Origin: Patescibacteria group bacterium
GTDB taxonomy: Bacteria > Patescibacteriota > UBA1384 > XYA2-FULL-43-10
DNA: 32,000 bases
Reading direction: 5' to 3'
Assembly (NCBI GenBank): GCA_041674405.1
Contig: JBAYVT010000005.1
Span: 90,001-122,000 of the forward strand
Every line of letters begins with the position of its first letter. Position 1 is the stretch's first letter. The notes beneath the pieces were generated by a model that was not told where the DNA came from, made no database searches, and was given only the letters and a program-made list of their open reading frames with translations. The translations under genes and the position numbers were made by a program. Shown here one piece after another: positions 1 through 12,905 of the stretch.

Positions 1-1516
1 ACAAAATCTTCACACGGCTCGTAATCGGAGGATGCAAAGACAACGGCAATCTGATAATATCTCTCAAAATTCCATCAATTCTATATCTGACGCGCAGATC
101 CTTTTGTTCTGGTTCAATATGAATGTCAGATGCGCGCTCAAACAAAGCGAAATTTATTAAAGCAGCAACTATCTTGGGTGCCGAAGAATTCTTGATATTG
201 CTTTTTAGGCCCTCGACATCAACAATATCTCCTTTAAGATAGGCCCCGATGTTTTTTTCGCTTTCTTCCACGCTTTCATCAGTTTTTGGATTTTTTTCAA
301 GCTCTTCCGTTGCAATTTCGCTGATATCAGTCTTTGATTCGAGATCAGGATTATCACTTGGCTGCTCACCATTTTGCCCTGCAGTCTTATCTTCAACGCC
401 ATCGCCAGTTTTTGATTCAGTCTTTGTGGGTGATTTTATATCTTCCGGGGCAGTAATATTGCCAACCGCAGCTGTTTCTCCGCCTGGCTGAGCCCCAAAT
501 GGGGCAACGATTGTCTCTTTTTCATCCCCACTCTCTTCGCTGTCAATTCTAATTACTGGCGTTACCTGAGAAACGGGCTCCTTTTTTCCAAGAAAAGAGC
601 CAAACAAGCTCGAAAGTGTAATAATTTCATCACCAGATGATTGCTTTTTTTCAATAACTTTTTCTTTGGTTTTTTCTTCTTCCACCTCTACTTTGACAGA
701 ATTTTCTTTTTTATTCTCAAGCTTTTTCTTGTATGCCTCGATCGCATAGTCGATATCTTCGCGAGAAGTGGCAAAAATTTGAAAATTAATTTTGTTAGCA
801 TTCTCCAAAGATTTGATGGCCTTGTGCAAAGCAGTATCATCTGGGTTCTCTGCTGCCAGAGCGAATGAATTATCCGTTTTTTTGTAAAAAACAACTACCC
901 GATACTGCTCAATAAATGAAAGCGGAAGCTTGCCCAGATATTCCGACCTTATGTCCTGATTTCGCAAAAAGACCGTCGGATAACTTCCGGTAGACAATAA
1001 ATCCTCAAACTTTCCCTTTTGGTCGTATTGTTTTAACGCCTCCAAAAAATCTGATTTTGCGGTTATATATAAATCTAAATTCAAATGCCTATCTTCGATA
1101 ATTTTTTGAAGGCCCTTGTTGAAATTTAGAGACAATTCCGTGGGATTGGCAACAGCAAGCTGCAATGATCCCTCCTTAAGCCCAAATGGGATCACAGAAA
1201 ATTTTTCTGCAACTGATTTCGGTATAATACCAAAAACATCGTGTGGAATTTCAAAATTCTTTAGGCTGACATATGGGATTTTCAAAAGAATACTATACGC
1301 TTTGTTTATGGTGTCCGAACTGACAATACGATTTTTCAAAAGAAAATTTTCCACATCTCTATTGGTTCGGTATTTTTTCTTGAGTTTGGTTGCGTCAGGT
1401 GCGGTTAGTAATCCCTGCATTACAAACACATCCAAAACAGACTGGGTAATAGAATTATAATCCAATCCATTCAAAAAATAAGAGTTTTTTGAAACTGTTT
1501 GTGACATTGTATTCAT
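1..1516 (-). CDS. pilB: Type IV pilus / T2SS assembly ATPase, PilB/GspE family. N-terminal ~505 codons only; the 3' end runs off the left edge, so it is absent from the ORF track.
   Basis: My own translation from the ATG at 1516-1514 stays open down to position 2 (MNTMSQTVSKNSYFLNGL...). It shows two T2SSE_N/MshEN-like repeats (IPYVSLKNFEIPHDVFGIIPKSVAEKFSVIPFG..LAVANP and LPLSFIEQYRVVVF..ALAAENPDD). At the window edge is the GspE core motif APKIVAALINFALFERASDIHIEPEQKDLRVRYRIDGILRDI. The start lies 6 nt after the upstream stop. Confidence 0.85.
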   Translation of the reverse strand, partial: MNTMSQTVSKNSYFLNGLDYNSITQSVLDVFVMQGLLTAPDATKLKKKYRTNRDVENFLLKNRIVSSDTINKAYSILLKIPYVSLKNFEIPHDVFGIIPKSVAEKFSVIPFGLKEGSLQLAVANPTELSLNFNKGLQKIIEDRHLNLDLYITAKSDFLEALKQYDQKGKFEDLLSTGSYPTVFLRNQDIRSEYLGKLPLSFIEQYRVVVFYKKTDNSFALAAENPDDTALHKAIKSLENANKINFQIFATSREDIDYAIEAYKKKLENKKENSVKVEVEEEKTKEKVIEKKQSSGDEIITLSSLFGSFLGKKEPVSQVTPVIRIDSEESGDEKETIVAPFGAQPGGETAAVGNITAPEDIKSPTKTESKTGDGVEDKTAGQNGEQPSDNPDLESKTDISEIATEELEKNPKTDESVEESEKNIGAYLKGDIVDVEGLKSNIKNSSAPKIVAALINFALFERASDIHIEPEQKDLRVRYRIDGILRDIIRLPLSLHPPITSRVKIL

Positions 1517-1521
1517 TTCTC

Positions 1522-1776
1522 TTATTCCGGATTAGCAAATGGGTTTGCTTTGCCCATTTTTGTAGTTGGGTCAGGAAGCGGTATTCCGGCATTGTTCTCA
1601 CGACCCTGAACAAGCGTCTCAGCTTCATCCTTAACCCCGGAGATGTCAAGAGTAATATAAGATGCCGTATTTTGTACCGAGATGCTTGAATTATTTTTCC
1701 AGATCATGTAAAAACCAACGATAGCGATCGTGAGAAATATTAGGCTTAAAATTAAATTGAATGTTCTTTTCTTCAT
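1522..1776 (-). CDS. Small single-pass membrane protein in the pilus cluster (function unknown; PilP-like by position only).
   Basis: 84-aa ORF with an N-terminal TM segment (FNLILSLIFLTIAIVGFYMIW). It has a 4-nt ATGA overlap with the upstream pilO-like gene and lies directly upstream of pilB. Confidence 0.5.
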   Translation of the reverse strand: MKKRTFNLILSLIFLTIAIVGFYMIWKNNSSISVQNTASYITLDISGVKDEAETLVQGRENNAGIPLPDPTTKMGKANPFANPE

Positions 1777-2345
1777 TGTGTCTCCCCCGCACTAACACTT
1801 CCTCTGGTATAAACCTCCAGGGTATAAGATGCCGATATGATATTTTCTTCCGGAGAAGTCATTGATAGCGCCTTTATGCGCATAAATTTAATGCTTTTTT
1901 CGATCGTGTCGGTAAATGCGCTTATGTTTTCAAAAGAACCGGAAACTGAAAAACTTACATTCAATAGATTTCCTGCTGTTACAGTTTCCGCCCCCTCGCC
2001 CTCTGTGGTGGAGATTGCAGGAGCAATGTCTATGGATGGAACAGCCAATGAATTTTTTGTAGCCATTGCCTCAATTTCAGAAATTAAATTCGGCTCATCA
2101 TTGTCGGATGGAACCGCGATCAAAAGCTCATTAATGGTATCCGATATAGAAGATAAGCTGCTCTTTGCCTCTTCGATCGAAGCAATTTCATTTTTTGCAT
2201 CCGAGACTTCTGCCGATAATTTCTCTGCTTCAGCCTTGTTGTTAGAATACGATGGAAGAATAATCTTCCACGATATCAAGAAAACAATAATTGTAAGAAT
2301 TACTGCGATTGAATTTGAAGCCATTTTGCTGTTTGTTTGTTTCAT
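1773..2345 (-). CDS. pilO: PilO-like type IV pilus assembly protein.
   Basis: N-terminal TM (IAVILTIIVFLISW), then a coiled-coil segment (AEAEKLSAEVSDAKNEIASIEEAK), then a C-terminal alpha/beta domain with the PilN/PilO-type pattern (LLNVSFSVSGSFENISAFTDTIEKSIKFMRIKALSM). Sits in an operon with pilB. Confidence 0.6.
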   Translation of the reverse strand: MKQTNSKMASNSIAVILTIIVFLISWKIILPSYSNNKAEAEKLSAEVSDAKNEIASIEEAKSSLSSISDTINELLIAVPSDNDEPNLISEIEAMATKNSLAVPSIDIAPAISTTEGEGAETVTAGNLLNVSFSVSGSFENISAFTDTIEKSIKFMRIKALSMTSPEENIISASYTLEVYTRGSVSAGETQ

Positions 2346-2358
2346 GATAAATCCAATT

Positions 2359-3126
2359 TTATGGCGCTACTTCCGGAGTTATGTTTTCTGTGTTCACACT
2401 ATCTCCGTAACCATAGGTTGAGCTGCTATCAGTCCCGGAACTATCCGTTGTGACACTGCTTGATGTTGAAGCAGGTGTTGATTCGCTGGTTTCAGTTTCA
2501 GCATTTGATGACGTAGTAGTAGAAGAAGATGTGCTGCTCTCGGTTGTGACTTCCTTTGTCGTATCTAGCTTGAAGGAAACAGAAAATGTTACTTTTTCGT
2601 TTGGCGGCGCATCCTCTGCCGTCGACATGGAAACGCTCTTTAGCTGAAGATCAGAAACTTTGTCGTATGATTTAAGCGCAAGCATAAAATCTGCAACGGT
2701 GCGATATGATGCGGTAGCGCCATCTAGGCTAGCTGTTCCATCGGAAGTGAGAGCGATCGTTGAAATATGAACATCCTTCGTAAAATGCAAATACAAGTTA
2801 TCTAGAACCTTTTTCTTGCTTTCCTGCTGAGTGGAAACTTGAGATAGGATTGAAATTACATTTTTAAGTCCAGTAACGTCATTGATAACTTTTTGATTTT
2901 CCACTAAAGCTAGGGTTGCATCCGCGGATTTTTTTTCGCTTTGCTTTTCGGAAATTGTAGTCTTAAGCGATGCGTCCGAAAACCAGATAAAACCCAAAAA
3001 TAAAACCGCTACAACAAAAGATAACCAGACAATCAGAGACGAAAAATCCGTTTCTTTTCTGTCGGCAAATTCGACTATTTCTTTACCACTTTGGTTATCG
3101 TGTACACCCGGTTTTTCTTCCGGCAT
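2359..3126 (-). CDS. PilN/PilO-like bitopic pilus assembly protein with a Ser/Thr-rich C-terminal tail.
   Basis: TM (LIVWLSFVVAVLFLGFIWF), a coiled region, and a PilN-like domain (ISTIALTSDGTASLDGATASYRTVADFMLAL..VTFSVSFKL). The last ~70 aa are about half Ser/Thr. SD GGAGGGGAG lies before the ATG. Confidence 0.5.
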   Translation of the reverse strand: MPEEKPGVHDNQSGKEIVEFADRKETDFSSLIVWLSFVVAVLFLGFIWFSDASLKTTISEKQSEKKSADATLALVENQKVINDVTGLKNVISILSQVSTQQESKKKVLDNLYLHFTKDVHISTIALTSDGTASLDGATASYRTVADFMLALKSYDKVSDLQLKSVSMSTAEDAPPNEKVTFSVSFKLDTTKEVTTESSTSSSTTTSSNAETETSESTPASTSSSVTTDSSGTDSSSTYGYGDSVNTENITPEVAP

Positions 3127-3229
3127 CTCCCCTCCGAGGGCAATGTTATATCATCAAAGATAATTGTAACACAACTTTCTGTCTATACAAATTTTATATC
3201 ACATAAAATCTCAATGCAATACCTAAAAG

Positions 3230-4366
3230 TTATCTTTCGGACGCAACCGGCATATTGAAATACCTGAATCCGGGCGGCCAATTGCCCGAAAGATTATAAT
3301 CATATGCAAATCTGATATTTACAATATTAATACCTCGGCCTGATGAATCCAAAACAATAAAGTCTCTCGCAACATACGAACCGTTCATCGTTACATTTTG
3401 AGTAAAACCAGTGGTGTTTTGAATTCTGATAGCTCCCAGGGCAAACATCGCAGCCGTTATTTTGCTGTTGCTATAAAGGCGAACATTTCCAGTGCCATTA
3501 ACAATGATTCCGAGCGAATTTGACGGATTCTGAGAATCCTCAGGACTAATATTCACTCCATCTTGGATAGTCAAAGTGCCATTAATAATGATTGTTCCAC
3601 GCCCGCTATATGTAATCGATTGACCAAGGTTAACATTGCCGTTTACAACCCATATTTTCCCTTCGGGATATTTTTCAGTGTTATTTCCGCCTACTCCCCC
3701 GGTGTAAAAAGAGCTGTAATCATCCGCCTGCAGATGCCAACGCAGACCCCCGGCCAAATCTGCCGGAGCATTTATCACTTCTGCTTCTCCCGCAAGATCA
3801 TTTATCCGATTTGTATATGAAGATCTCTGGCTTTCAGCATAGGATGCTTGCGCCTCAGAATTTAGCGTGTAATTTCGGATATTCCAACTGGCGTTTCTGT
3901 TTGAGTTTAAATTCAAATTTTTACCATACACTTGAAAATTATTCAGAACATCTGCACTACTATAGATATCTCCCTGGACAGATAACACTGGATAAAAAAG
4001 CGTCGAAATTTCAAGCCCCGTTGAACCTCCAATTTTTGTGCGACTAACCATATTCCGAATCGATGAATTTGCAGGATCAAGGCGATAGCAATATGGGTTG
4101 GTCGTGATTTTATCCCAACAATATGCCGCGCCCGGAGAGACTAACATCGATTGATTAAACCCGAGTAGATAATTCTGGTCAAAATTAATTACTGCTTCGT
4201 TGCCGTTCATTCCGGAATAATAAACTTGGCCACTATCTTTTGTGACTGTTAAATTTCCAACCAAAACTTGCGGAAGCTGATATGATTCAGCAAAAGCATT
4301 TGCCGGTATAAGCGCAAATACCACTAATAACGATAGAAACAAATATATTCTAACTAATCTGGTCAT
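3230..4366 (-). CDS. Secreted protein with beta-helix-like C-terminal repeats (function unknown).
   Basis: Likely start is the internal MTRLVRIYLFLSLLVVFALIPANAFA/ES, a signal peptide with an AFA cleavage motif. The C-terminal half has regular G-x-I/V-x-I/V-N-G turns (GKIWVVNGNVNLG..GTIIINGTLTIQDG..LGIIVNGTGNVRLY). Confidence 0.6.
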   Translation of the reverse strand: MTRLVRIYLFLSLLVVFALIPANAFAESYQLPQVLVGNLTVTKDSGQVYYSGMNGNEAVINFDQNYLLGFNQSMLVSPGAAYCWDKITTNPYCYRLDPANSSIRNMVSRTKIGGSTGLEISTLFYPVLSVQGDIYSSADVLNNFQVYGKNLNLNSNRNASWNIRNYTLNSEAQASYAESQRSSYTNRINDLAGEAEVINAPADLAGGLRWHLQADDYSSFYTGGVGGNNTEKYPEGKIWVVNGNVNLGQSITYSGRGTIIINGTLTIQDGVNISPEDSQNPSNSLGIIVNGTGNVRLYSNSKITAAMFALGAIRIQNTTGFTQNVTMNGSYVARDFIVLDSSGRGINIVNIRFAYDYNLSGNWPPGFRYFNMPVASER

Positions 4367-4380
4367 GATCGCTCTGTTAA

Positions 4381-6933
4381 TTAGTATGTTCGAACCTGGC
4401 AATAATATGTGATTGGGGAAGTAAGTGGGTTCTGGCCATTATTCGCCCATTCTACAAAATCTCCAGAATTTGGGTCGGCGCTTGCAACAAATGTTCCGCC
4501 ATTTAAATAAGCATCAAACCCAAGGCTACTGCTCCCTGTTATATCCGACGGCTCGCATCTGTATCGGTAGGTATCACTTGGAATTCGCAAAAGTTCATCA
4601 TCTACCGTTGCAACGCCCGTCATATCGCCAATTTCAATGGACACTTGAATTACATCCCCTAGCTGCAGCGCATAGGGATTAAAAGCAGCCCCAGACCCCT
4701 GCCTATTTATCGGAACCAGTTTTTTGCGAATATTAAATTGCGGCCCACCTGTTACAACTATTAATCTGCCATCTTGCCCATCATAAACTTTATCCCCATC
4801 GCTATTATTGATTGACCAAGCCCCATTCTTGCTGCCCCTGGCTCCACTCACTCTCGAAGCTGTTCTAATAGCACTTGAATCAAGATTGGAGTTTGTATAT
4901 TGAATAAATATGTAACCCCCGCCTCCCCCAGACGATCCATCAATGTTATACAAAGGCACAGAAATCAAATTACGGTTGCCAGTGATTGGAATCTCTTGGG
5001 CAGATGCTGAAAATACTCCGGACAAACCAACGCCCACATTCAAAGTTGAGACCCTAATATTAATACTTCCCCCAGCTCCTCCGGCATAACCAGAGTCATT
5101 GTCATAAGGCTGCTGCATAGAACTGGTCCATCTTCCCTCAGCAAAAATTGCTCTTGAAGATTGAATGGCTAAAACTGATGAATTTATTTCTAATAAACCA
5201 CCACCGTCACCACCACCATTCCAGCTTCCAGTATATCCGCCCCCAGAACCAAGACTACTTGGATTATCAGCTGGTCCCCCGTATGTGTTATTTGGCCAAT
5301 CTGGCGGTTTGCGCCACGTATTACCTCCACAATTTAACCCACTATCACCGGCCCCACCTTCTCCTGCATGCGACCCAGCACTAGCAATTGCGGTACACCC
5401 ACCATTCATTGAAATACCTCCGCCTGGCGCTCCATCAAACGAAACGCTACCTCCCCTAAGGCGAGTTGAACCATAATTCGGTTGAGTCCCAACACCCCAA
5501 GCACCCGCATACCCAGATCCGGTTGCATCAATTTTTCCACCGCTTCGTATTAAAATTGTGTTGGCCACATTGAGATGTAGGCCCGCTGGATTGTTATTAT
5601 AATTATCCGCATATGCTTGATCCAACGCATTCCAATTAATAGTTCCCCCATCATAATGCGAGCCTAAAATATTGTAGCTTGGAATCGCGCCACCTTTGTC
5701 ATCCCAAGTACCAAGTGGATCGGCTACTGGGGTAGAGTTTTGCCCCCATCCTTGCCACTCAAATTTGAAGGTATCATCGTTGTGGTATGCATCCCATTTG
5801 CCATAAGACTCGCCGGTTCCTCCATTGGAACCAACAGGACTATCGAGCATTCTTAAATCTTGCCTTAAATTCATGTTACGCTTGTGTCCAGCCAGAACCG
5901 CATTAGAAAAGCCAGATCCCATATTAAGGTCATATTGTGGAATAGTCTTTTCGGTATAGGCAGAAATATAATAGTCGAAATCCATTCTTCTCACCAAAGA
6001 TGTATTTACAGTTCCATCTTCATTGGAGCCATAGAAATTACTCAGAGGCATAGCTACAGCAGCCACAGCAACGCCATATGGGGACGAGGGATTGAGCTCG
6101 ATATAATTCAACCAGAGTTGTGATGATCCACTGACTTCACCAAAATAAATTTTAACCGGCACATAAGTAGTGGACCCAGTTCCGGTCATTAAGGTTCTTG
6201 TGCACGCATCAAGGCCATAGTATCGATTCGCTGGTGATCCATTGCCAGCATTATCGCCATATATTGGCCAACTAGCCGATAATGAGTCACTATAAATAGT
6301 ATGCCAGTAAGTAGTATCAACTGTTGTAGCGGGTGCGCTACACGAAGCGTCGGTTCCGACTTCGATTGCCATCGCATCATCAAGTTTTCCTCCGGCCGCT
6401 TGAGGAAATATAAGATTTGTACCTGTTAATTTTATGAAACCTGTCCAAACCACTCCCCAATAATCAGATGAATATGTGGGGCGATTCAAATGCCCCGTTC
6501 TATCTGCATATGCTTGGGTTAATGTACCATTATTTGTAACTGTCAAGTTATTTAAATTTACCGATCCCTCTGCCATCAATGTTGCGAGTCCAGATGTACT
6601 GCCTACCGTAAGGTTTGTGTTTGAATCCACTGCAAAACCGGTATCAACATTGTAGAATGTGCTTAAAAATCGCTGGTCGAGCTGAGCATCATTCATTGCC
6701 GGCAAAAAAGGAGATTGGTATGTATAAATATGTCCGTCAGTTTTCAATAGGTACGAACCAGTTTGAATTGTAACGTCATTACCGGTTTGCACTATCGCTG
6801 CCCGCGTCTTGCTCGCGCCGTTCATCATATTGGTCACAATGGCAAGCCCAGAAAATATCACAAGCAAAATAAGCGCCACATACGTGAAAATTCGCCTGCG
6901 ATTTATACGATCAATTATCGAGATCTCTCTCAT
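4381..6933 (-). CDS. Large (~850 aa) N-terminally anchored glycine-rich surface protein with a PA14-like module. Candidate adhesin.
   Basis: The track start at 6945 is TTG; the ATG at 6933 follows GAGGGG. N-terminal TM is IFTYVALILLVIFSGLAIV. A PA14-like pattern spans about 6094-6474 (DYWGVVWTGFIKLTGTNLIF..KLDDAMAIEV..YVPVKIYFGEVSGSSQLWLNY). Gly-rich repeats span about 4741-5583 (GSGYAGAWG, GAPGGGISMNGG, GSGGGYTGSWNGGGDGGG, GYAGGAGGSINI, GSSGGGGGYIFI). There is no pilin G/FTLxE motif. Confidence 0.65.
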   Translation of the reverse strand: MREISIIDRINRRRIFTYVALILLVIFSGLAIVTNMMNGASKTRAAIVQTGNDVTIQTGSYLLKTDGHIYTYQSPFLPAMNDAQLDQRFLSTFYNVDTGFAVDSNTNLTVGSTSGLATLMAEGSVNLNNLTVTNNGTLTQAYADRTGHLNRPTYSSDYWGVVWTGFIKLTGTNLIFPQAAGGKLDDAMAIEVGTDASCSAPATTVDTTYWHTIYSDSLSASWPIYGDNAGNGSPANRYYGLDACTRTLMTGTGSTTYVPVKIYFGEVSGSSQLWLNYIELNPSSPYGVAVAAVAMPLSNFYGSNEDGTVNTSLVRRMDFDYYISAYTEKTIPQYDLNMGSGFSNAVLAGHKRNMNLRQDLRMLDSPVGSNGGTGESYGKWDAYHNDDTFKFEWQGWGQNSTPVADPLGTWDDKGGAIPSYNILGSHYDGGTINWNALDQAYADNYNNNPAGLHLNVANTILIRSGGKIDATGSGYAGAWGVGTQPNYGSTRLRGGSVSFDGAPGGGISMNGGCTAIASAGSHAGEGGAGDSGLNCGGNTWRKPPDWPNNTYGGPADNPSSLGSGGGYTGSWNGGGDGGGLLEINSSVLAIQSSRAIFAEGRWTSSMQQPYDNDSGYAGGAGGSINIRVSTLNVGVGLSGVFSASAQEIPITGNRNLISVPLYNIDGSSGGGGGYIFIQYTNSNLDSSAIRTASRVSGARGSKNGAWSINNSDGDKVYDGQDGRLIVVTGGPQFNIRKKLVPINRQGSGAAFNPYALQLGDVIQVSIEIGDMTGVATVDDELLRIPSDTYRYRCEPSDITGSSSLGFDAYLNGGTFVASADPNSGDFVEWANNGQNPLTSPITYYCQVRTY

Positions 6934-7000
6934 ATCCCCTCGCAATAAATATATCTTATGAAATTTTGATTACAACGATATTATAAACACTACGGAAAAA

Positions 7001-7681
7001 CTATACAACTCTTTTTAATTTCTTCTTTGCCTGTTCTATTTGAATTATTGCCTTGACGATGTCCTCATACATTTTATATCGGCTTTTTATCCCGGCCCAG
7101 ATATCATCATTCTTTTCTTCCTTAATTACCTGGGTTAAACCGTGCAAAACCACAATCTCACGCCGCTCCTTTGGAACAGCCGCCGTAATCAATGCATCAA
7201 CGCCGAATCTGGAATGTTTAATTTTTGCAAGTGGAGGCAAATTCTTCCGCCAAATCACACGTTGGCCGGAGATTGCAGGAAATGCCCTATTGGCGATTTT
7301 TGTGGTTGTAAGCTTATCAATATTGAATACACCAAGCGAAAGATCAGCCGTTTTCATAAATGCCACCGGTCCCAAAAGCTCCAAAATATGCCCCTCTGTT
7401 AAACCAATCAAGTCGGCATCCAAAAACAACAAAAGCGGATGGTGCGAATGTTTAATGCCATTATATAAAGCCATTCCCTTGCCGCCATTTTGTTTGTTTT
7501 TAAGAAGGCGTACATTTGAATATTTTTTAACAATTTCGCATGTTTTATCCTTTGAGCAATCATCCACAACAATTTTTTCATCAATAAAATCAAGCGGAGC
7601 GACTACGTCGAGAACTTTGCGAATATTTTTTGCTTCGTTGTATGCACAGATAATCAGTGAAATTTTTTGTTCAAATTTCAT
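7001..7681 (-). CDS. Family 2 glycosyltransferase.
   Basis: GT2 motifs: SLIICAYNEAKNI, VDDCSKDKT, and the DxD in LLFLDADL. 226 aa. Confidence 0.8.
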   Translation of the reverse strand: MKFEQKISLIICAYNEAKNIRKVLDVVAPLDFIDEKIVVDDCSKDKTCEIVKKYSNVRLLKNKQNGGKGMALYNGIKHSHHPLLLFLDADLIGLTEGHILELLGPVAFMKTADLSLGVFNIDKLTTTKIANRAFPAISGQRVIWRKNLPPLAKIKHSRFGVDALITAAVPKERREIVVLHGLTQVIKEEKNDDIWAGIKSRYKMYEDIVKAIIQIEQAKKKLKRVV

Positions 7682-7690
7682 CGCAGACTA

Positions 7691-7699
7691 ATTATACCA
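7691..7699 (-). promoter_or_regulatory. Extended -10 element TGGTATAAT, 9 nt upstream of the GT2 ATG.
   Basis: The reverse complement of attatacca is TGGTATAAT. Only tagtctgcg separates it from the ATG at 7681, and no SD is present. Confidence 0.4.
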
Positions 7700-7739
7700 A
7701 ACTATAAAATAAAAATCAGTTTTTGTCGTATAAACGCAG

Positions 7740-7794
7740 CAACTCCCACAGACTGGCTGCGGGAGTTGGAGATCTGCCGTTCCCCGGAGGGAAC
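7740..7794 (-). terminator. Two GC-rich hairpins after the island-1 lipoprotein stop codon.
   Basis: On the minus strand: GTTCCC-TCCG-GGGAAC (7779-7794), directly after the TAA at 7796-7798. Next comes CAACTCCCGCAG-CCAGT-CTGTGGGAGTTG (7740-7768, one mismatch), followed by a weak U-tract. Confidence 0.55.
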
Positions 7795-7795
7795 A

Positions 7796-8317
7796 TTACG
7801 GCGCGTAGCTGGGGGGAGTGAGATGGCCAGCAATGGTCGTCCCGTTGTTCGTAGTGACGATGTCACCCTCCGCGGCGAAGTTGGCGGCGAGGCACGCCGC
7901 CGCGCCGTCTACCGAGATGTGGTTGCCGTCCATGGCGACCACCTCCATCCACCAGGAGCCCTCCTCGTACTGCATCAGAAGATAGGGCTGGGTGCCCTGG
8001 CCCAGGTCCAGACTCCGAAGAGCCAGAGACAGGATCTCCTGGCTAGGCCGGATAGGGACCGACCCGACCTCGACATCGGCAGTGTTGTAGACCTTGATCT
8101 GGCCGTTGCCGGTCCCGTCGCGGGACATGGTCAAGTACGTGATGCCATCGCCGCTGTCGAGGCGAGCGATGTTGCCCAAGCCGTCTGTGGCCCACTTCAC
8201 ACCCGCCGTCGGGAAGGCCGGGTCCACGCTTCCGCCTCCGCCACCACCACAACCAGTCGAGATGAGGATCGCCACCAACATGGCGACCAGTCCGACCAAC
8301 AACATCCATTTGCGCAT
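7796..8317 (-). CDS. GC-rich putative lipoprotein (island 1), function unknown.
   Basis: Start chosen at MRKWMLLVGLVAMLVAILISTGC, 5 nt after the SD AGGTGA. The Cys is followed by a GGGGGGS linker. Most codons end in G/C. The lipobox is imperfect (S at -3). Confidence 0.7.
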   Translation of the reverse strand: MRKWMLLVGLVAMLVAILISTGCGGGGGGSVDPAFPTAGVKWATDGLGNIARLDSGDGITYLTMSRDGTGNGQIKVYNTADVEVGSVPIRPSQEILSLALRSLDLGQGTQPYLLMQYEEGSWWMEVVAMDGNHISVDGAAACLAANFAAEGDIVTTNNGTTIAGHLTPPSYAP

Positions 8318-8378
8318 GTTCATCACCTGTTCCAGGAGTTCGTACACCATGTGGCGGCATACGTATTACAGCGCCATC

Positions 8379-8407
8379 AAACTAGCATATATTCAGCAAT
8401 TTGTCAA
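8379..8407 (-). promoter_or_regulatory. Sigma70-like promoter for the island-1 lipoprotein gene.
   Basis: Minus strand reads TTGACA (8402-8407), a 17-nt spacer, then TAGTTT (8379-8384), set in AT-rich DNA. Confidence 0.45.
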
Positions 8408-8471
8408 TAATAGATAATTATTTTCTGCCGTTATGCTACCGGCCACAAAAAATTCTTCAGCCAAGCCAATC

Positions 8472-8505
8472 AAAAAATTTCCAACCATCTGGCTGGAAAT
8501 TTTTT
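8472..8505. terminator. 12-bp AT-rich hairpin with A- and T-tracts on both sides (bidirectional terminator-like).
   Basis: AAAAAATTTCCA-accatctggc-TGGAAATTTTTT. Confidence 0.4.
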
Positions 8506-8583
8506 GTCAGACTTGCATACCTTTGTATATCCGAAACACAATGGATAAGCATTGTGAAGTTGTTTTTAAAGCTACTTTATCCT

Positions 8584-8620
8584 AATAAAAATAATCAGCT
8601 CTAAACTGATTATTTTTTGC
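8584..8620 (-). terminator. Hairpin terminator downstream of rdgB. Member of a repeated intergenic hairpin family.
   Basis: AATAATCAG-ctctaaa-CTGATTATT, flanked by an A-run and a T-run. About 80% identical to 10316-10350. Confidence 0.55.
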
Positions 8621-8685
8621 AGAAAACATTGGAAGATACTGGAGATTGTCTAGCGGTAAAACATTTTTAACGACAATACGGTACT

Positions 8686-9303
8686 TTAAAGACTAAAGTA
8701 CTTGTCAAGTTCCTTGATCGCTGACCTAAAAGCTTTTCCCCTATGATTTATTTCTATTAAATCATTTGGGTCGAACTCAGCATTTGTTTTTTTATAATTA
8801 GCATTTTTTGATAAAAATATGGGTGCGTATCCAAAACTTTTTGTTCCTTTTGGCTCGAGTGCGATGCGACCATCCCACCTTCCTTCGGTTGTCTTAACAA
8901 ATTTGGTTGAAGGATCATATATAGCAACATTGCAGTTATAATGACAACCCCGCATACTCATCGGAATCTCATTCATCTTTGACAGAACTTTTCTGTTATT
9001 TGCCTCGTCTGTTCCTTCTTCCGAATAACGGGACGAGCATATTCCCGGTTCTCCACCAAGAGCATCAATGCAAATTCCACTATCATCAGCAAGCGTAGTC
9101 ATTTGCAAATTGTCGCCAATTACAATTGCTTTAATTAGCGCATTTCCTTCAAAACTTTCTGCATTTTCCTGAACCTTAAGATCAGCAATCTTGTCTTTAT
9201 AATCATAAAGGAATTTCAAGTCATAATTTGAGTTCTTAAAAATCTCCCGAATTTCCCTTGCCTTACCTTGATTCGCAGTGGCGATTAAAATTGTTTTTTT
9301 CAT
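8686..9303 (-). CDS. rdgB: Non-canonical purine NTP pyrophosphatase (RdgB/HAM1 family ITPase).
   Basis: Ham1 motifs: ILIATANQGKAREI, ENAESFEGNALIKA, DDSGICIDALGGEPGICSSRY, SFGYAPIF. Confidence 0.85.
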   Translation of the reverse strand: MKKTILIATANQGKAREIREIFKNSNYDLKFLYDYKDKIADLKVQENAESFEGNALIKAIVIGDNLQMTTLADDSGICIDALGGEPGICSSRYSEEGTDEANNRKVLSKMNEIPMSMRGCHYNCNVAIYDPSTKFVKTTEGRWDGRIALEPKGTKSFGYAPIFLSKNANYKKTNAEFDPNDLIEINHRGKAFRSAIKELDKYFSL

Positions 9304-9375
9304 AAATTATTATTTAGGATATTGTTGGCTAATATAGTATCAGAAACACAAGTTCAATTCCAGCCATTTTTTAAT

Positions 9376-9462
9376 GACAAAATATCCAATCTGTAGGTGG
9401 ATATCTTTGGCAATGTAAATATGCAAAGTTAGAACTTGTTATAATGCCGCATAATCAAAACG
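9376..9462. repeat. Diverged copy of the terminator hairpin plus the last codons of the P-loop kinase gene (partner at 11016-11100).
   Basis: By-eye alignment gives roughly two thirds identity. Shared blocks include ACAAAA, GTGGATAT, TTTGGC and the 11-nt block TTAGAACTTGT. The hairpin ATATCCA/TGGATAT is at 9382-9404. Confidence 0.5.
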
Positions 9463-9511
9463 GCCGCCCCCGAAGAGGCGACCGTCTGATAATACACCGG
9501 AAACGCTCCGG
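9456..9511 (-). terminator. Strong intrinsic terminator after the island-2 lipoprotein gene.
   Basis: On the minus strand: CCGGA-GCGTT-TCCGG (9497-9511). Then ACGGTCGCCTC-TTCG-GGGGGCGGCCGT (9460-9485), an 11-bp stem including two G-U pairs with a UUCG loop, followed by TTTTG. Confidence 0.7.
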
Positions 9512-9520
9512 CGCGACTCA

Positions 9521-10195
9521 CTAGCGAAGGCTGAGGTAGCCTTGCTTCAGTTGCTCGTGAGAGATGGTGATGGTGGCGTACAGCACCCGGTTCTCGTCGA
9601 TCAGGCTTCCGGGATTCTCGAAGTTCCAGGACGGCAGCCAGAGCAAGTTGTCCACGTAGTACTTGAAGCGAACCACAGGGGGGCCTTGCTCGCTGGTCAG
9701 GACCTTCACCCTCTCCATCGGAAGAGAGCTAACGAAGGTTGGCACATCTCCCCCGCTTTGGTTTTGGGGAAGCGACCAGCAGAAGACATAGCTGACTCCT
9801 GGCCGAGACTTTCCCTCGACGCTGCCCTCGACGTAGCCTCCGAGGAAATTGCCTCCCCCGCTTAGGCTTCCACTGAGGTCAGACTTCTGGCCTTTGCTCA
9901 CCAGCGGGTTGAAGACCAGTGGATGGGGCCCGAGCAGATGGTATCTCTCCAACTGCCCAATGTTCCACTTCACCCATCCAGTATCTCTGGCAGACTTCTC
10001 TCTGGCCCGCTTGATGGCAGAGTCATAGAGTTCGAAGTTACCTATCCGTGGGTTAAAGCTTCGTTCCCAGAAGTAGTCGGGCGTGTCGAGCCTGACTTTC
10101 AGCCAAGACTTGTCCGCGGGAGTCAGCCCCTTGGAGCAGCCTACAACTGACACACCTACCAACAGAACCAACAACACGACAGCGATCTTTCGCAT
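9521..10195 (-). CDS. GC-rich putative lipoprotein (island 2), function unknown.
   Basis: MRKIAVVLLVLLVGVSVVGC has a canonical lipobox V-V-G-C. SD GGAAGGGA is upstream and the stop is TAG. Codons are G/C-biased at the third position. 224 aa. Confidence 0.75.
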   Translation of the reverse strand: MRKIAVVLLVLLVGVSVVGCSKGLTPADKSWLKVRLDTPDYFWERSFNPRIGNFELYDSAIKRAREKSARDTGWVKWNIGQLERYHLLGPHPLVFNPLVSKGQKSDLSGSLSGGGNFLGGYVEGSVEGKSRPGVSYVFCWSLPQNQSGGDVPTFVSSLPMERVKVLTSEQGPPVVRFKYYVDNLLWLPSWNFENPGSLIDENRVLYATITISHEQLKQGYLSLR

Positions 10196-10248
10196 CTTGA
10201 TCGTCCCTTCCTGGATATCGGTCTAGATTTGTGTTTCAGAGCTTAAAC

Positions 10249-10277
10249 ACAATAACACAATATTACAAATATGTCAA
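10249..10277 (-). promoter_or_regulatory. Sigma70-like promoter for the island-2 lipoprotein gene.
   Basis: Minus strand reads TTGACA (10272-10277), a 17-nt spacer, then TATTGT (10249-10254). The sequence around the -35 resembles the island-1 promoter (ATTGACA-A/T-ATT). Confidence 0.45.
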
Positions 10278-10315
10278 TTATTAACTTCATTGAAGTTATA
10301 TAAATATAGAACTCA

Positions 10316-10350
10316 ACAAAAAATAACCAGCACTAAACTGATTATTTATT
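10316..10350 (-). terminator. Hairpin terminator downstream of the Nudix gene (same family as 8584-8620).
   Basis: AATAACCAG-cactaaa-CTGATTATT with flanking A and T runs. Confidence 0.55.
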
Positions 10351-10400
10351 GGCAGGATATAGCAACTGAAATCAGAAACTTTTATTTGAGTGCAAATGTT

Positions 10401-10937
10401 CTATATTAGTTTCTTTTCTTTTAAATATCTTAAACCAACGAGACCCGTTGCCATGTCTGTCAGCTCTCCGGAAAGCAAGTGTTTCTCAAATTCATTTAAA
10501 CTTAGTAATACTACTTCGACAAACTCAGTTTTTTCATTTTCTGGTTCTTTCACTTGTTTGCAATTTAGTGCTATAAAATTATGAAGTTCGGTATCCGAAT
10601 AAGCACACTTATAAGCCTTATTAACAAGGTAAAATTCTCCTGTATAACCAGTTTCTTCCAGTAACTCTCTTTTTATCCCATCAACCGGATATTCATTATT
10701 ATCGATGCCTCCACCAGGTAGCTCAAGCAATATTTTCTCGCACCCAGGTCTAAATTGTCTCGCTAGAATTATTTTTTTATCTTCAGTAATCGCCAGCACT
10801 GCAGCAACAGGGCCCTCTTTCTTTATATGATAATTCTCAACTTCTCCATCAGGCATGCGAAAAGTTTTTTTGATAATTTTTCTAAAACCAACCTTAATCG
10901 GCTCTTCCTCTTTTATTTTTTTCCACCTTATACTCAT
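10401..10937 (-). CDS. NUDIX hydrolase (ADP-ribose pyrophosphatase-like).
   Basis: Nudix box GGGIDNNEYPVDGIKRELLEETGY. 178 aa. Confidence 0.85.
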   Translation of the reverse strand: MSIRWKKIKEEEPIKVGFRKIIKKTFRMPDGEVENYHIKKEGPVAAVLAITEDKKIILARQFRPGCEKILLELPGGGIDNNEYPVDGIKRELLEETGYTGEFYLVNKAYKCAYSDTELHNFIALNCKQVKEPENEKTEFVEVVLLSLNEFEKHLLSGELTDMATGLVGLRYLKEKKLI

Positions 10938-11787: not shown

Positions 11788-11812
11788 CAAAAAATCACTA
11801 GTCCCAGACTAG
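11788..11812 (-). terminator. Intrinsic terminator closing the tRNA-rpmG-tRNA-Trp transcription unit.
   Basis: Minus strand: CTAGTC-TGG-GACTAG followed by TGATTTTTTG. Confidence 0.65.
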
Positions 11813-11992
11813 CAATCTTTTGGCATGGGCTAGAGGAGGATCTCACGTCGGCTATTCGCCTCCCTGGATACCCTCGGTTTCCGGCTCCTTCCGACATCGG
11901 GAGACCAAATGTTCTCCCGACCCCACTTTGTTCGACTCCTCTAAAAACCAAAAGCCATCCCGCATAGTCAATCTTTGATTGGCGACGTGGGA
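11813..11992 (-). other. Structured spacer built from tRNA-Trp-derived direct and inverted repeats. Possible ncRNA or integration scar.
   Basis: TGGCATGGGCTAGAGGAG (11821-11838) matches the tRNA-Trp 3' end (11993-12010) at 17/18. GTTCGACTCCTCTA (11930-11943) is a perfect inverted copy of 12003-12016. GCCATCCCGC (11954-11963) is inverted relative to 11987-11996 at 9/10. There is an internal 8-bp hairpin TCGGGAGA/TCTCCCGA. Confidence 0.4.
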
Positions 11993-12339: not shown

Positions 12340-12429
12340 ATTGATTTTATTATTGAGGCTCCTCGACAGGCTCGGAGTCATTCGACTCATCTGGTTTACC
12401 ATGAGCGAACAGCTTTGTTGTGAGTCGAA
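12340..12429 (-). repeat. tRNA-trailer repeat, copy 1 (between tRNA-Thr(TGT) and rpmG).
   Basis: Shares these blocks with 12593-12748: TTCGAC after the CCA, CGCTCATGGTAAACCA, ATGAGTCGAATGACTCCGAG, and C-C/T-TGTCGAGGAGCCT. Contains an 11-bp inverted repeat CATTCGACTCA/TGAGTCGAATG. Confidence 0.6.
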
Positions 12430-12504
12430 TGGAGCCACCTGTCGGATTTGGACCGACGACCTACTGTTTACAAAACAGTTGCTCTACCACTGAGCTAAGG
12501 TGGC
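12430..12504 (-). tRNA. trnT: tRNA-Thr (anticodon TGT), CCA encoded, T-loop TCCAAAT.
   Basis: GCCACCTTAGCTCAGTGGTAGAGCAACTGTTTTGTAAACAGTAGGTCGTCGGTCCAAATCCGACAGGTGGCTCCA. All four stems pair. Confidence 0.9.
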
Positions 12505-12505
12505 A

Positions 12506-12592
12506 TGGTGCTGAGAGCAGGATTCGAACCTGCGAAGGCCGGAGGCCGACAGATTTACAGTCTGTTGCGTTTGACCGCTTCGCTATCTCAGC
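12506..12592 (-). tRNA. trnY: tRNA-Tyr (anticodon GTA), long variable arm, CCA encoded.
   Basis: GCTGAGATAGCGAAGCGGTCAAACGCAACAGACTGTAAATCTGTCGGCCTCCGGCCTTCGCAGGTTCGAATCCTGCTCTCAGCACCA. Its 3' end is 1 nt from the 5' end of tRNA-Thr(TGT). Confidence 0.9.
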
Positions 12593-12748
12593 AAGATATT
12601 AATTTGTAGGCTCCTCGACAAGACCCAACGGGTAGCCATTGGCTCCTTCGGCTCGGGTCTCGGAGTCATTCGACTCATATGTTTTACTGTGAGCATGTCG
12701 CTTTATTGAATGGTTTACCATGAGCGAGGAAAGGAATGACGGGTCGAA
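12593..12748 (-). repeat. tRNA-trailer repeat, copy 2 (expanded).
   Basis: Same conserved blocks as 12340-12429. It also has a ~36-nt GC-rich insert (ACCCGAGCCGAAGGAGCCAATGGCTACCCGTTGGGT) with an AGACCC/GGGTCT stem, and an internal diverged duplication GCTCATGGTAAACCA / GCTCACAGTAAAACA. Confidence 0.6.
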
Positions 12749-12829
12749 TGGAGCCGTTGAGCGGACTTATTCCCTCGACCTACTCCTTACCATGCCTGTC
12801 CGCCTCTGGCGGAGAGTTGCCCCCACCGA
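12749..12829 (-). pseudogene. Degenerate tRNA-Thr(GGT)-like copy (probable tRNA pseudogene).
   Basis: The 3' 45 nt align without gaps to tRNA-Thr(GGT). They share ATGGTAAGGA, AGGTC and CGGCTCCA (about 29/45 by eye). The anticodon stem, T-stem and acceptor stem no longer pair. Confidence 0.45.
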
Positions 12830-12905
12830 TGGAGCCGACATCGGGAATCGGACCCGAGACCTCATCCTTACCATGGATGCGCTCTACCAACTGAGCTATA
12901 TCGGC
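12830..12905 (-). tRNA. trnT: tRNA-Thr (anticodon GGT), CCA encoded, T-loop TCCGATT.
   Basis: GCCGATATAGCTCAGTTGGTAGAGCGCATCCATGGTAAGGATGAGGTCTCGGGTCCGATTCCCGATGTCGGCTCCA. Cloverleaf checked by hand. Confidence 0.9.

Follow-up and report, generated by a model that had tools for sequence, protein, structure and literature searches.

The stretch of DNA analysed here (the window) comprises 32,000 nucleotides from a Patescibacteria group bacterium (GTDB lineage Bacteria; Patescibacteriota; UBA1384; XYA2-FULL-43-10), corresponding to positions 90,001 to 122,000 of the forward strand of contig JBAYVT010000005.1 in NCBI GenBank assembly GCA_041674405.1. The feature under study, henceforth referred to as island 1 (ISL1), is a GC-rich transcription unit on the minus strand that encodes a predicted lipoprotein precursor of 173 residues and opens a complete type IV pilus (T4P) locus whose genes run in the same direction. 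A preliminary description of this DNA had read the unit as a self-contained lipoprotein cassette and had offered, as one reading, a very recent acquisition from a high-GC donor. The cassette and the lipoprotein were supported by the present analysis and the recent acquisition was not; the GC richness of ISL1 appears instead to be a long-maintained trait. The coordinates of ISL1, of a second GC-rich unit (island 2) and of the neighbouring genes are collected in Table 1.

Table 1 Features of the two GC-rich islands and their surroundings, in window coordinates (empty cells, no coordinates given)
Feature	Position	Strand	Description
Putative ISL1 promoter	8379–8407	minus	TTGACA (8402–8407), 17-nt spacer, TGC extended -10 (8385–8387), TAGTTT (8379–8384)
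ISL1 5' untranslated region (UTR)	8318–8378	minus	~55 nt; stem-loop ~8341–8365; AGGTGA ribosome-binding site 8323–8328
ISL1 coding sequence (CDS)	7796–8317	minus	173-residue predicted lipoprotein precursor; ATG at 8317, stop TAA 7796–7798
Signal peptide	8252–8317	minus	Part of ISL1 CDS
Lipobox Cys23	8249–8251	minus	Part of ISL1 CDS
Gly6-Ser linker	8228–8248	minus	Part of ISL1 CDS, followed by the beta-rich domain
ISL1 3' hairpin 1	7779–7794	minus	GTTCCC-TCCG-GGGAAC, directly after the stop codon
ISL1 3' hairpin 2	7740–7768	minus	12-bp stem CAACTCCCGCAG / CTGTGGGAGTTG, 5-nt loop, then weak U tract
Putative island 2 promoter	10249–10277	minus	TTGACA, 17-nt spacer, TG-extended TATTGT (TGtTATTGT)
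Island 2 CDS	9521–10195	minus	224-residue lipoprotein-like protein (MRKIAVVLLVLLVGVSVVG, then C), lipobox VVG-C; GC 0.566, third-position G+C 0.72 (z = 9.3)
Island 2 hairpins	9457–9513	minus	Two, GC-rich; the second (9457–9486) with UUUU forms a canonical intrinsic terminator; -38.5 kcal/mol, z = -4.3
Downstream co-directional context	1–7681	minus	Start of the T4P locus; third-position G+C 0.33–0.40 throughout
GT2 gene	7001–7681	minus	First gene after ISL1
850-residue extracellular protein gene	4381–6933 (L174 6194–8746)	minus	N-terminal membrane anchor, Gly-rich C-terminal half, no Pfam match
Further genes		minus	378-residue DUF7305 protein, PilN, PilO, 84-residue open reading frame, PilB/MshE across the window edge

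ISL1 is monocistronic and carries its own promoter and hairpins, in line with the cassette described earlier. The putative promoter combines a consensus -35 element with an extended -10 element within AT-rich DNA; the TTGACA-17-TAGTTT arrangement given in the preliminary description was read in the sequence, together with the TGC extension. Both the TTGACA and a TATATGCTA block are invariant, at the same spacing, in 4/4 homologous loci. A stem-loop of 7–9 bp is found at the same place in the 5' UTR of all four loci, with compensatory changes in 3/5 consensus pairs; with four sequences, and with single-sequence z-scores that are non-significant in two of them, its conservation is suggestive only. 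NCBI calls a 184-residue form of the protein starting at 8350; the 173-residue form used here has a ribosome-binding site and the same length as its ortholog.

The two GC-rich 3' hairpins noted earlier jointly fold with -35.3 kcal/mol (z = -4.3, with 0/200 shuffles as good). Equivalent 3' hairpins were observed in two contigs carrying homologs, L001 (z = -4.2) and L009 (z = -4.0), and L001 has a hairpin of different sequence at the position of hairpin 1. Hairpin 2 is predicted to serve as terminator and/or 3' stabiliser, and a simple terminator scan misses the ISL1 hairpins because the T run is poor. The GT2 gene downstream has its own putative promoter (TGgTATAAT, ~7690–7700). As the preliminary description had noted, no mobility gene accompanies the unit; none was found in the window, and no flanking repeats were found at ISL1. 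An integron gene cassette was considered and rejected on account of the conserved promoter, the lack of intI and of an array, and the housekeeping genes between the two islands. An attC site was rejected likewise, the 3' hairpins being 16 and 29 nt long and without convincing R''/R' core sites.

The G+C content is 62.9% at 7735–8375 compared to 40.0% for the whole window, and the flanks contain 24.5% (7682–7734) and 32.6% (8376–8685). The richest 600-bp window reaches a G+C fraction of 0.63, which is 4.8 standard deviations over the window mean. The ISL1 CDS has a G+C fraction of 0.638, distributed as 0.60/0.49/0.82 over the first, second and third codon positions (GC1, GC2 and GC3). Among 39 other genes of the same genome (~51 kb), GC3 is 0.357 ± 0.039 with a maximum of 0.49, which places ISL1 at z = 11.8; in composition it is as atypical for its host genome as a transferred island is expected to be. 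Earlier hand counts of G+C were exact (43/60 at 7861–7920, 16/60 at 8581–8640 and 21/60 at 8701–8760), and the statement that the codons end mostly in G or C agrees with the GC3 of 0.82. The shift had also been described as limited to the CDS and the two hairpins. Both are indeed GC-rich, but the 5' UTR is raised as well (53% GC at 8318–8375), so that the GC-rich block corresponds to the entire transcription unit.

The edges of the block point the same way. In 6/6 loci, G+C declines within 25–50 bp of the promoter at one end and the last hairpin at the other, and the housekeeping neighbours use AT-rich terminator hairpins (8587–8619, 10319–10351); the GC-rich unit is therefore the transcript. 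A scan of ~0.9 Mb of other AT-rich loci showed that only ISL1, island 2 and one ISL1 homolog exceed the local median by 0.15 over at least 500 bp. A third rise of G+C in the window, at 12400–12900, is the tRNA cluster.

Homologs of ISL1 were sought among ~15 billion proteins in all. A word-indexed search covered 5.8 billion clusters, and two profile searches were made, one of them an exhaustive HMMER run over 1.84 billion representatives. The resulting family has four members: the window protein, P0002 (53–56% identical to it; contigs L001 and L002), P0005 (~29–35%; L008) and P0007 (~28–30%; L009). GC3 is 0.82 for the window gene, 0.75 in L001 (GT2 0.46), 0.75 in L008 (GT2 0.42) and 0.70 in L009 (neighbours 0.32–0.39). 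All four genes adjoin GT2 and/or the gene of the 850-residue protein. The window order is rdgB, ISL1, GT2 and the 850-residue protein gene. In L001, ISL1 stands next to a divergently transcribed GTPase gene and is followed by GT2 (75% identical) and the 850-residue protein gene; in L008, GT2 is followed by ISL1 and the contig end; in L009, a Y1 transposase gene, ISL1 and the 850-residue protein gene follow one another, and GT2 is missing. In the comparison of the GT2–rdgB region across related genomes that the preliminary description had suggested, the L001 homolog lies at the same position beside GT2 and the L008 and L009 copies share the neighbourhood only. GT2 profile scans of GTDB species representatives and JGI metagenome contigs gave, among the matches listed, generic GT2s of at most 39% identity and no further syntenic loci. 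The conserved window proteins are singletons at 90% clustering.

Two further observations were made on these contigs. In L009, a Y1 transposase gene (IS200/RAYT-type, PF01797) and REP-like GC-rich palindromes (CCGTCCCCCGGGCCGG) flank the ISL1 homolog (1392–2210 and 2775–2975), and in L008 a related GAACCGTCCCC motif lies upstream of the ISL1 copy; the transposase and palindromes may perhaps be the reason for the different gene order in L008 and L009. One of the samples, JGI 3300037067, is cited in a landfill virome paper.

Comparison of the homologs indicates that the silent sites of ISL1 have been rewritten since the lineages split, with G/C kept. Fourfold sites at identical residues differ in 53–67% of cases between ISL1 homologs, saturation being ~66%. 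Scoring the sites as strong (S, G or C) or weak (W, A or T), the joint SS/SW/WW frequencies between the window and L001 are 0.59/0.31/0.10 observed against 0.56/0.38/0.06 if independent; the S/W states are statistically independent between the orthologs, and 16/61 fourfold sites carry G<->C swaps. The Nei-Gojobori proportion of synonymous differences (pS) is 0.62 for ISL1, corresponding to a dS of at least 1.3, and 0.80–0.85, off scale, for the adjacent GT2. A two-state amelioration model with an equilibrium of 0.36, a starting GC3 of 0.90 and 0.65 S<->W substitutions per site per lineage predicts a GC3 of at most 0.49, whereas each lineage retains 70–82% G/C. Since the silent sites are randomised and G/C is nevertheless kept, something gene-specific must hold ~80% G/C against an AT-biased background.

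The nature of this force was examined through codon choice. Pyrimidine-ending (NNY) codons end in C at a fraction of 0.74 in ISL1 compared to 0.25, purine-ending (NNR) codons end in G at 0.77 compared to 0.28, and both G- and C-ending codons are favoured in the fourfold families. Because NNY and NNR codons are equally shifted, and because the shift extends to the first two codon positions, the UTRs and the hairpins, the pattern corresponds to a nucleotide-level pressure for G/C and not to tRNA-type translational selection. As far as the sequences indicate, the force works at the nucleotide level, is specific to individual genes and has been maintained in evolution. Amino-acid composition was rejected as the cause, as it explains GC1 and GC2 but not GC3: the 850-residue neighbour has a Gly, Ala, Arg and Pro (GARP) fraction of 0.30, Lys of 0.02 and Gly of 0.14, like ISL1, yet a GC3 of 0.35. 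A rule that highly expressed or secreted genes are GC3-rich was rejected as well, on the basis of the two major pilin genes (0.35–0.36), the 850-residue protein (0.35) and ribosomal protein L28 (0.49). The predicted folding energy of the CDS is -43 to -46 kcal/mol per 100 nt, compared to -23 to -25 for the neighbours.

Island 2 repeats this organization 1.2 kb away from ISL1, between the NUDIX and rdgB house-cleaning genes, with a GC-rich block at 9457–10230. The ISL1 and island 2 proteins are unrelated (E = 2.5), and theirs are the only lipobox-containing open reading frames (ORFs) identified in the window by a regular expression, ISL1 having been added by reading because of its Ser at -3. 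The sole homolog of island 2, P0004 (L005), is 48% identical and has a GC3 of 0.61 compared to 0.48 in the adjoining greA-like gene. By sequence, the compositional regime appears to be common to ISL1 and at least one unrelated lipoprotein gene.

We consider it probable, with a good deal of room for doubt, that ISL1 is a native, vertically inherited gene with a maintained GC regime, and that the force behind it would be selection on the transcript. Such selection for G/C would probably favour a stable, long-lived mRNA. In the proposed mechanism, a strong promoter would drive a transcript with a stem-loop near its 5' end, a GC-rich body and, at its 3' end, two GC-rich hairpins; the coding body, for which about double the folding strength per nucleotide is predicted, would contribute to mRNA longevity, and the long-lived mRNA would in turn allow a cell with few ribosomes to make an abundant envelope protein. 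A broader formulation, for which the case falls somewhat short of even, is that this Patescibacteria lineage maintains a mirror-image composition regime (~75–80% vs ~36% G/C at third positions) for a few surface-lipoprotein units. The candidate benefits of such a regime are put forward just as tentatively and include mRNA longevity and, as the boldest suggestion, expression matched to, or inside, a high-GC partner.

Several points weigh against selection on the transcript of a native gene. The evidence base is small: the general claim rests on four family members and short contigs, the comparison being with three homologs on contigs of 1.4–4.4 kb, from a lineage that does not appear among the matches listed for the reference collections scanned. 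Strict synteny is limited to L001/L002; L008 and L009 share the neighbourhood in a different order, for which reason these copies may, judging from their placement, be relocated copies or paralogs. Structure of the mRNA beyond composition is inconsistent: the window gene has z = +0.95, the other genes range from -2.3 to -5.5, and controls go down to -3.2. The pilins, presumably abundant, lack GC-rich codons, so that an abundant envelope protein is an insufficient reason for the regime. Neither Lgt nor LspA was seen in the ~51 kb of this genome that the analysis covered. Finally, an ancient foreign origin of ISL1 is possible, since GC1/2/3 values of 0.60/0.49/0.82 are those of a native gene of a ~62% GC genome.

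Two explanations of the maintained composition rank below selection on the transcript. The first, which we regard as unlikely, combines an ancient acquisition by the ancestor of the clade with continuing gene flow from a GC-rich partner or an unsampled pool, recombination with the incoming DNA renewing the G+C of the gene, or invokes GC-biased gene conversion (gBGC) at a recombination hotspot. Nucleotide-level pressure at all codon positions is compatible with this explanation, and the T4P/competence-type machine encoded at the locus is of a kind that can take up DNA. The ISL1 protein also evolves faster than its neighbour (53% identity vs 75% for GT2), and the L008 and L009 copies are more diverged than GT2 distances predict and are placed differently. 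However, no homolog was found in GC-rich organisms in searches that included assemblies of the same samples, G+C falls exactly at the transcript ends and not gradually, and the homologous AT-rich promoter is still attached to the gene. The effects of gBGC reported in bacteria are small, and the shift from 0.36 to 0.82 is large by comparison.

The second, less likely again, is rare-codon gating, in which the codons would slow translation for co-translational secretion or lipidation or impose a dependence on particular tRNAs; control by bldA and TTA codons in Streptomyces is its mirror image. ISL1 does use codons that are minor in 18 other genes (CTG 0.41 vs 0.08, GCG 0.35 vs 0.17), and both islands encode predicted exported lipoproteins. 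The equal shift of NNY and NNR codons and its extension to the UTRs, the hairpins and codon positions 1 and 2 argue against gating, as do the facts that no ISL1 codon is truly absent from the other genes and that the 850-residue protein and the pilins are exported yet not recoded.

One reading offered in the preliminary description, namely that ISL1 reached this genome recently and unameliorated by horizontal transfer from a high-GC donor such as the host, is very improbable. Such a transfer would fit the step at all three codon positions, which matches a gene of a ~62% GC genome, the sharp boundaries and the occurrence of an ORFan in an AT-rich episymbiont-type genome. On the other hand, equally GC-rich homologs (28–56% identity) are present at this locus or in this neighbourhood in three further AT-rich genomes, behind a homologous AT-rich promoter, and the saturated synonymous sites, the independent S/W states and the modelled GC3 of at most 0.49 are those described above. 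Equally GC-rich orthologs at the same locus were the very observation that the earlier reading had named as deciding against it, and recent acquisition is thereby largely refuted. Nor is the distribution patchy as for a transferred island, with homologs at the locus or in the neighbourhood in L001/L002, L008 and L009 (GC3 0.70–0.75). No donor homolog was found outside the family in 1.84 billion representatives, viral contigs, PHROGs, PADLOC, or phage and plasmid collections (tblastn). In addition to the lack of flanking repeats and of mobility genes in the window, neither a donor nor a mobile-element vehicle could be identified for ISL1, the Y1 transposase gene adjoining it in L009 only.

More improbable still is that the GC-rich block represents a large structured non-coding RNA, as such patches in AT-rich genomes usually do, and that its ORF is incidental. 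The unit is GC-rich from promoter to terminator within AT-rich DNA and its folding energy is very negative. However, differences between ISL1 and its L001 ortholog are distributed as 0.36/0.21/0.51 over the three codon positions, with a dN/dS of 0.26; this codon periodicity and the dN/dS value indicate that ISL1 is protein-coding. The signal peptide, lipobox and ribosome-binding site are kept in all homologs, and structure beyond composition is inconsistent. Rfam returned nothing at E ≤ 1 over 7500–10500, and at the gathering score the window contains tRNAs only.

It is equally difficult to credit that the real gene is the 247-residue plus-strand ORF (7667–8410), or that an overlapping antisense gene constrains the composition; for either, the chance is negligible. 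An uninterrupted antisense ORF does run across the island, and a 195-residue antisense gene is called in L006 and L174. The frame is nevertheless interrupted in L001 and L009 (1 stop in L001, 0 in L008, 2 in L009, and 11 in the island 2 homolog), and it is open because the sense codons TTA, CTA and TCA are absent. No alternative frame is depleted of stops compared to codon-order shuffles, and the long ORFs reported earlier in other frames are present and spurious. The gene caller of the ENA assembly annotated the spurious antisense ORF (195 residues; L006 11786–12373, L174 4717–5304, equivalent to window ~7820–8410, plus strand) and missed the lipoprotein, which is an example of how high-GC frames mislead gene prediction in an AT-rich genome.

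An assembly chimera or contamination, with a GC-rich fragment joined into an AT-rich contig, can be dismissed just as readily despite the abrupt switch in composition, as both junctions, near 7735 and 8375, are crossed identically in the NCBI metagenome-assembled genome and in Logan (L003), JGI (L004, L170, L173) and ENA/MEGAHIT (L006, L171 and L174, a 396-kb contig) contigs with 99.96–100% identity to the window (L003, L006 and L174 100%, L004 99.96%), from different assemblers and possibly shared underlying reads, and as the same architecture recurs in different genomes from other runs.

The ISL1 product is a small, predicted Sec/signal peptidase II-type lipoprotein, in which a flexible tether would link the putatively lipidated, membrane-anchored Cys23 to a beta-rich ectodomain. 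The signal peptide ending in Cys and the Gly6-Ser linker of the preliminary description were read in the sequence as MRKWMLLVGLVAMLVAILISTG followed by C and then GGGGGGS. It has a basic n-region, a hydrophobic h-region and no charge in the 6 positions before the lipobox, a layout also observed in P0002, P0005 and P0007. The lipobox I-S-T-G-C agrees with the PS51257 pattern, which we take to be [LIVMFWSTAG](2)-[LIVMFYSTAGCQ]-[AGS]-C with an invariant Cys, and has Ser instead of the classical Leu at -3; the ortholog P0002 has a classical L-V-G-C lipobox. G22 and C23 are invariant across the aligned homologs. The four family members share the linker L-x-G-C-G-G-(G/S)-G-G, with the Ser at -3 in the window protein, and an F-P-T/A-G-V-x-W motif.

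No match to ISL1 was found in Pfam, NCBIfam, PHROGs, PADLOC or PDB sequences. A match to the NCBIfam 'lipo-invert tail' entry was rejected, as it reached 21 bits compared to a cutoff of 37 and covered the signal peptide and Gly run only. AlphaFold2 prediction from the four-sequence alignment gave an all-beta core at residues 40–130 (pLDDT 71–93), with low values elsewhere and a mean of 61.8. Foldseek returned nothing from PDB at E ≤ 0.001; the best matches are single beta-propeller blades and are weak (E ≥ 0.03, TM ≤ 0.37), and no Pfam repeat family is matched. A weak HMMER match to P0006, a giant immunoglobulin (Ig)-repeat protein of 2850 residues, runs via Ig-like Big_5/CopC repeats, i.e. 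an Ig-like strand pair. P0006, P0008 and P0009 were rejected as family members, the weak matches sharing the signal peptide, the Gly run or one Ig-like strand pair only.

The protein is probably pilus- or surface-associated, and a surface or pilus-associated interaction role is plausible from the locus position and the rapid protein evolution. Of the surface or host-interaction factor proposed earlier, the surface location is plausible, the lipobox being kept in all homologs; host interaction is suggested by position only. T4P have been linked to host attachment by cultivated Patescibacteria (PMC12206443), and both they and lipoproteins to immune interaction (PMC13194787). As lineage-specific surface lipoproteins near a T4P locus, ISL1 and island 2 are, in light of this literature, reasonable candidates for interaction factors.

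Beyond the window, extension of the contig adds a PilT-like ATPase, PilC, two pilins, PilD and three minor pilins to the T4P locus. The 850-residue protein is the most constant neighbour of the ISL1 family, and its N-terminal region is 21–38% identical between relatives; it is predicted from these comparisons to be a fast-evolving surface component of the pilus locus.

Several other elements were observed in the window. The two AT-rich terminator hairpins of the housekeeping neighbours (AAAAATAATCAG...CTGATTATTTTT) are ~91% identical direct repeats located downstream of rdgB and NUDIX and upstream of the island promoters. A 36-nt palindromic dispersed repeat (CAAAAAATTTCCAGCCAGATGGTTGGAAATTTTTTG-like) is present in at least 3 copies, at 8471–8506 in the rdgB–ISL1 gap and at 12371–12406 and 12659–12694 in the tRNA cluster. 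A ~170-nt non-coding patch at 11790–11985 (minus strand; GC 0.53–0.60), between tRNA-Trp and a kinase-like gene, ends in a hairpin and U run. It has a long closing helix and folds with -71.2 kcal/mol (z = -2.8, with 0/200 shuffles as good), gave no Rfam match at E ≤ 1 and is a candidate for an unannotated structured small RNA.

Compositional outliers are routinely read as recent horizontal transfer, and ISL1 resembles a textbook case. If its regime is truly maintained, it would stand as a clear exception to the standard inference of recent transfer from outliers in G+C and codon usage, and would provide a handle on what selects for G+C in bacteria. It has long been asked whether selection, biased gene conversion or mutation determines bacterial G+C. 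ISL1 offers an unusually clean natural test of this question, being 46 GC3 points away from its neighbours and having controls at the same locus (the pilins and the 850-residue protein).

Compared with the compositionally atypical islands that are read as horizontally transferred DNA in the amelioration framework of Lawrence and Ochman, ISL1 shows the same sharp break of G+C and codon usage in a gene-sized block that encodes an ORFan surface protein. It differs in that the anomaly is common to diverged homologs at the same locus under synonymous saturation, which is an equilibrium and not a decay, and in having no integrase, tRNA target, direct repeats or donor. GC-content screens for non-coding RNA rest on the occurrence of GC-rich structured RNA genes in AT-rich genomes (PMC2704228). 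ISL1 resembles such genes as a GC-rich promoter-to-terminator unit that contrasts with its AT-rich surroundings, and differs from them in being protein-coding and without an Rfam match.

Among T4P components, PilP offers a parallel: ISL1 too encodes a predicted lipoprotein of ~175 residues in which a disordered linker precedes a beta-rich C-terminal domain, and PilN and PilO are encoded at the same locus. ISL1, in contrast, is three genes away from pilN/pilO and has its own promoter and terminator. A PilP role was rejected given this separate transcription unit, the lack of a PF04351 match at E ≤ 0.1 and the lack of a PilP/GspC HR domain among the top Foldseek matches; to our knowledge, monoderm T4P systems do not need PilP. 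With bacterial lipoproteins in general (PS51257, e.g. Braun's lipoprotein Lpp) the ISL1 product shares the basic N-terminus, the h-region, the lipobox Cys and the small size, as well as a Gly/Ser tether after the Cys as in many monoderm lipoproteins, and its gene likewise forms a monocistronic unit between a strong promoter and a stable terminator. It differs in lacking a sequence or fold relation to any described lipoprotein family, and we know of no lipoprotein gene family defined by a conserved compositional anomaly.

The closest functional parallels would be the long-lived mRNAs with end-protecting structures, namely those with the E. coli ompA 5' stem-loop, the lpp mRNA and the B. subtilis aprE leader. 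By analogy, ISL1 would match them in its 5' stem-loop, strong 3' hairpins, strong promoter and exported envelope protein. No precedent was found in the open-access literature searched for recoding of a whole CDS or for G+C conserved across saturated divergence. The stability of the ompA, lpp and aprE transcripts comes from UTR elements, whereas in ISL1 the whole CDS stands at a GC3 of 0.8 in a genome with a GC3 of 0.36.

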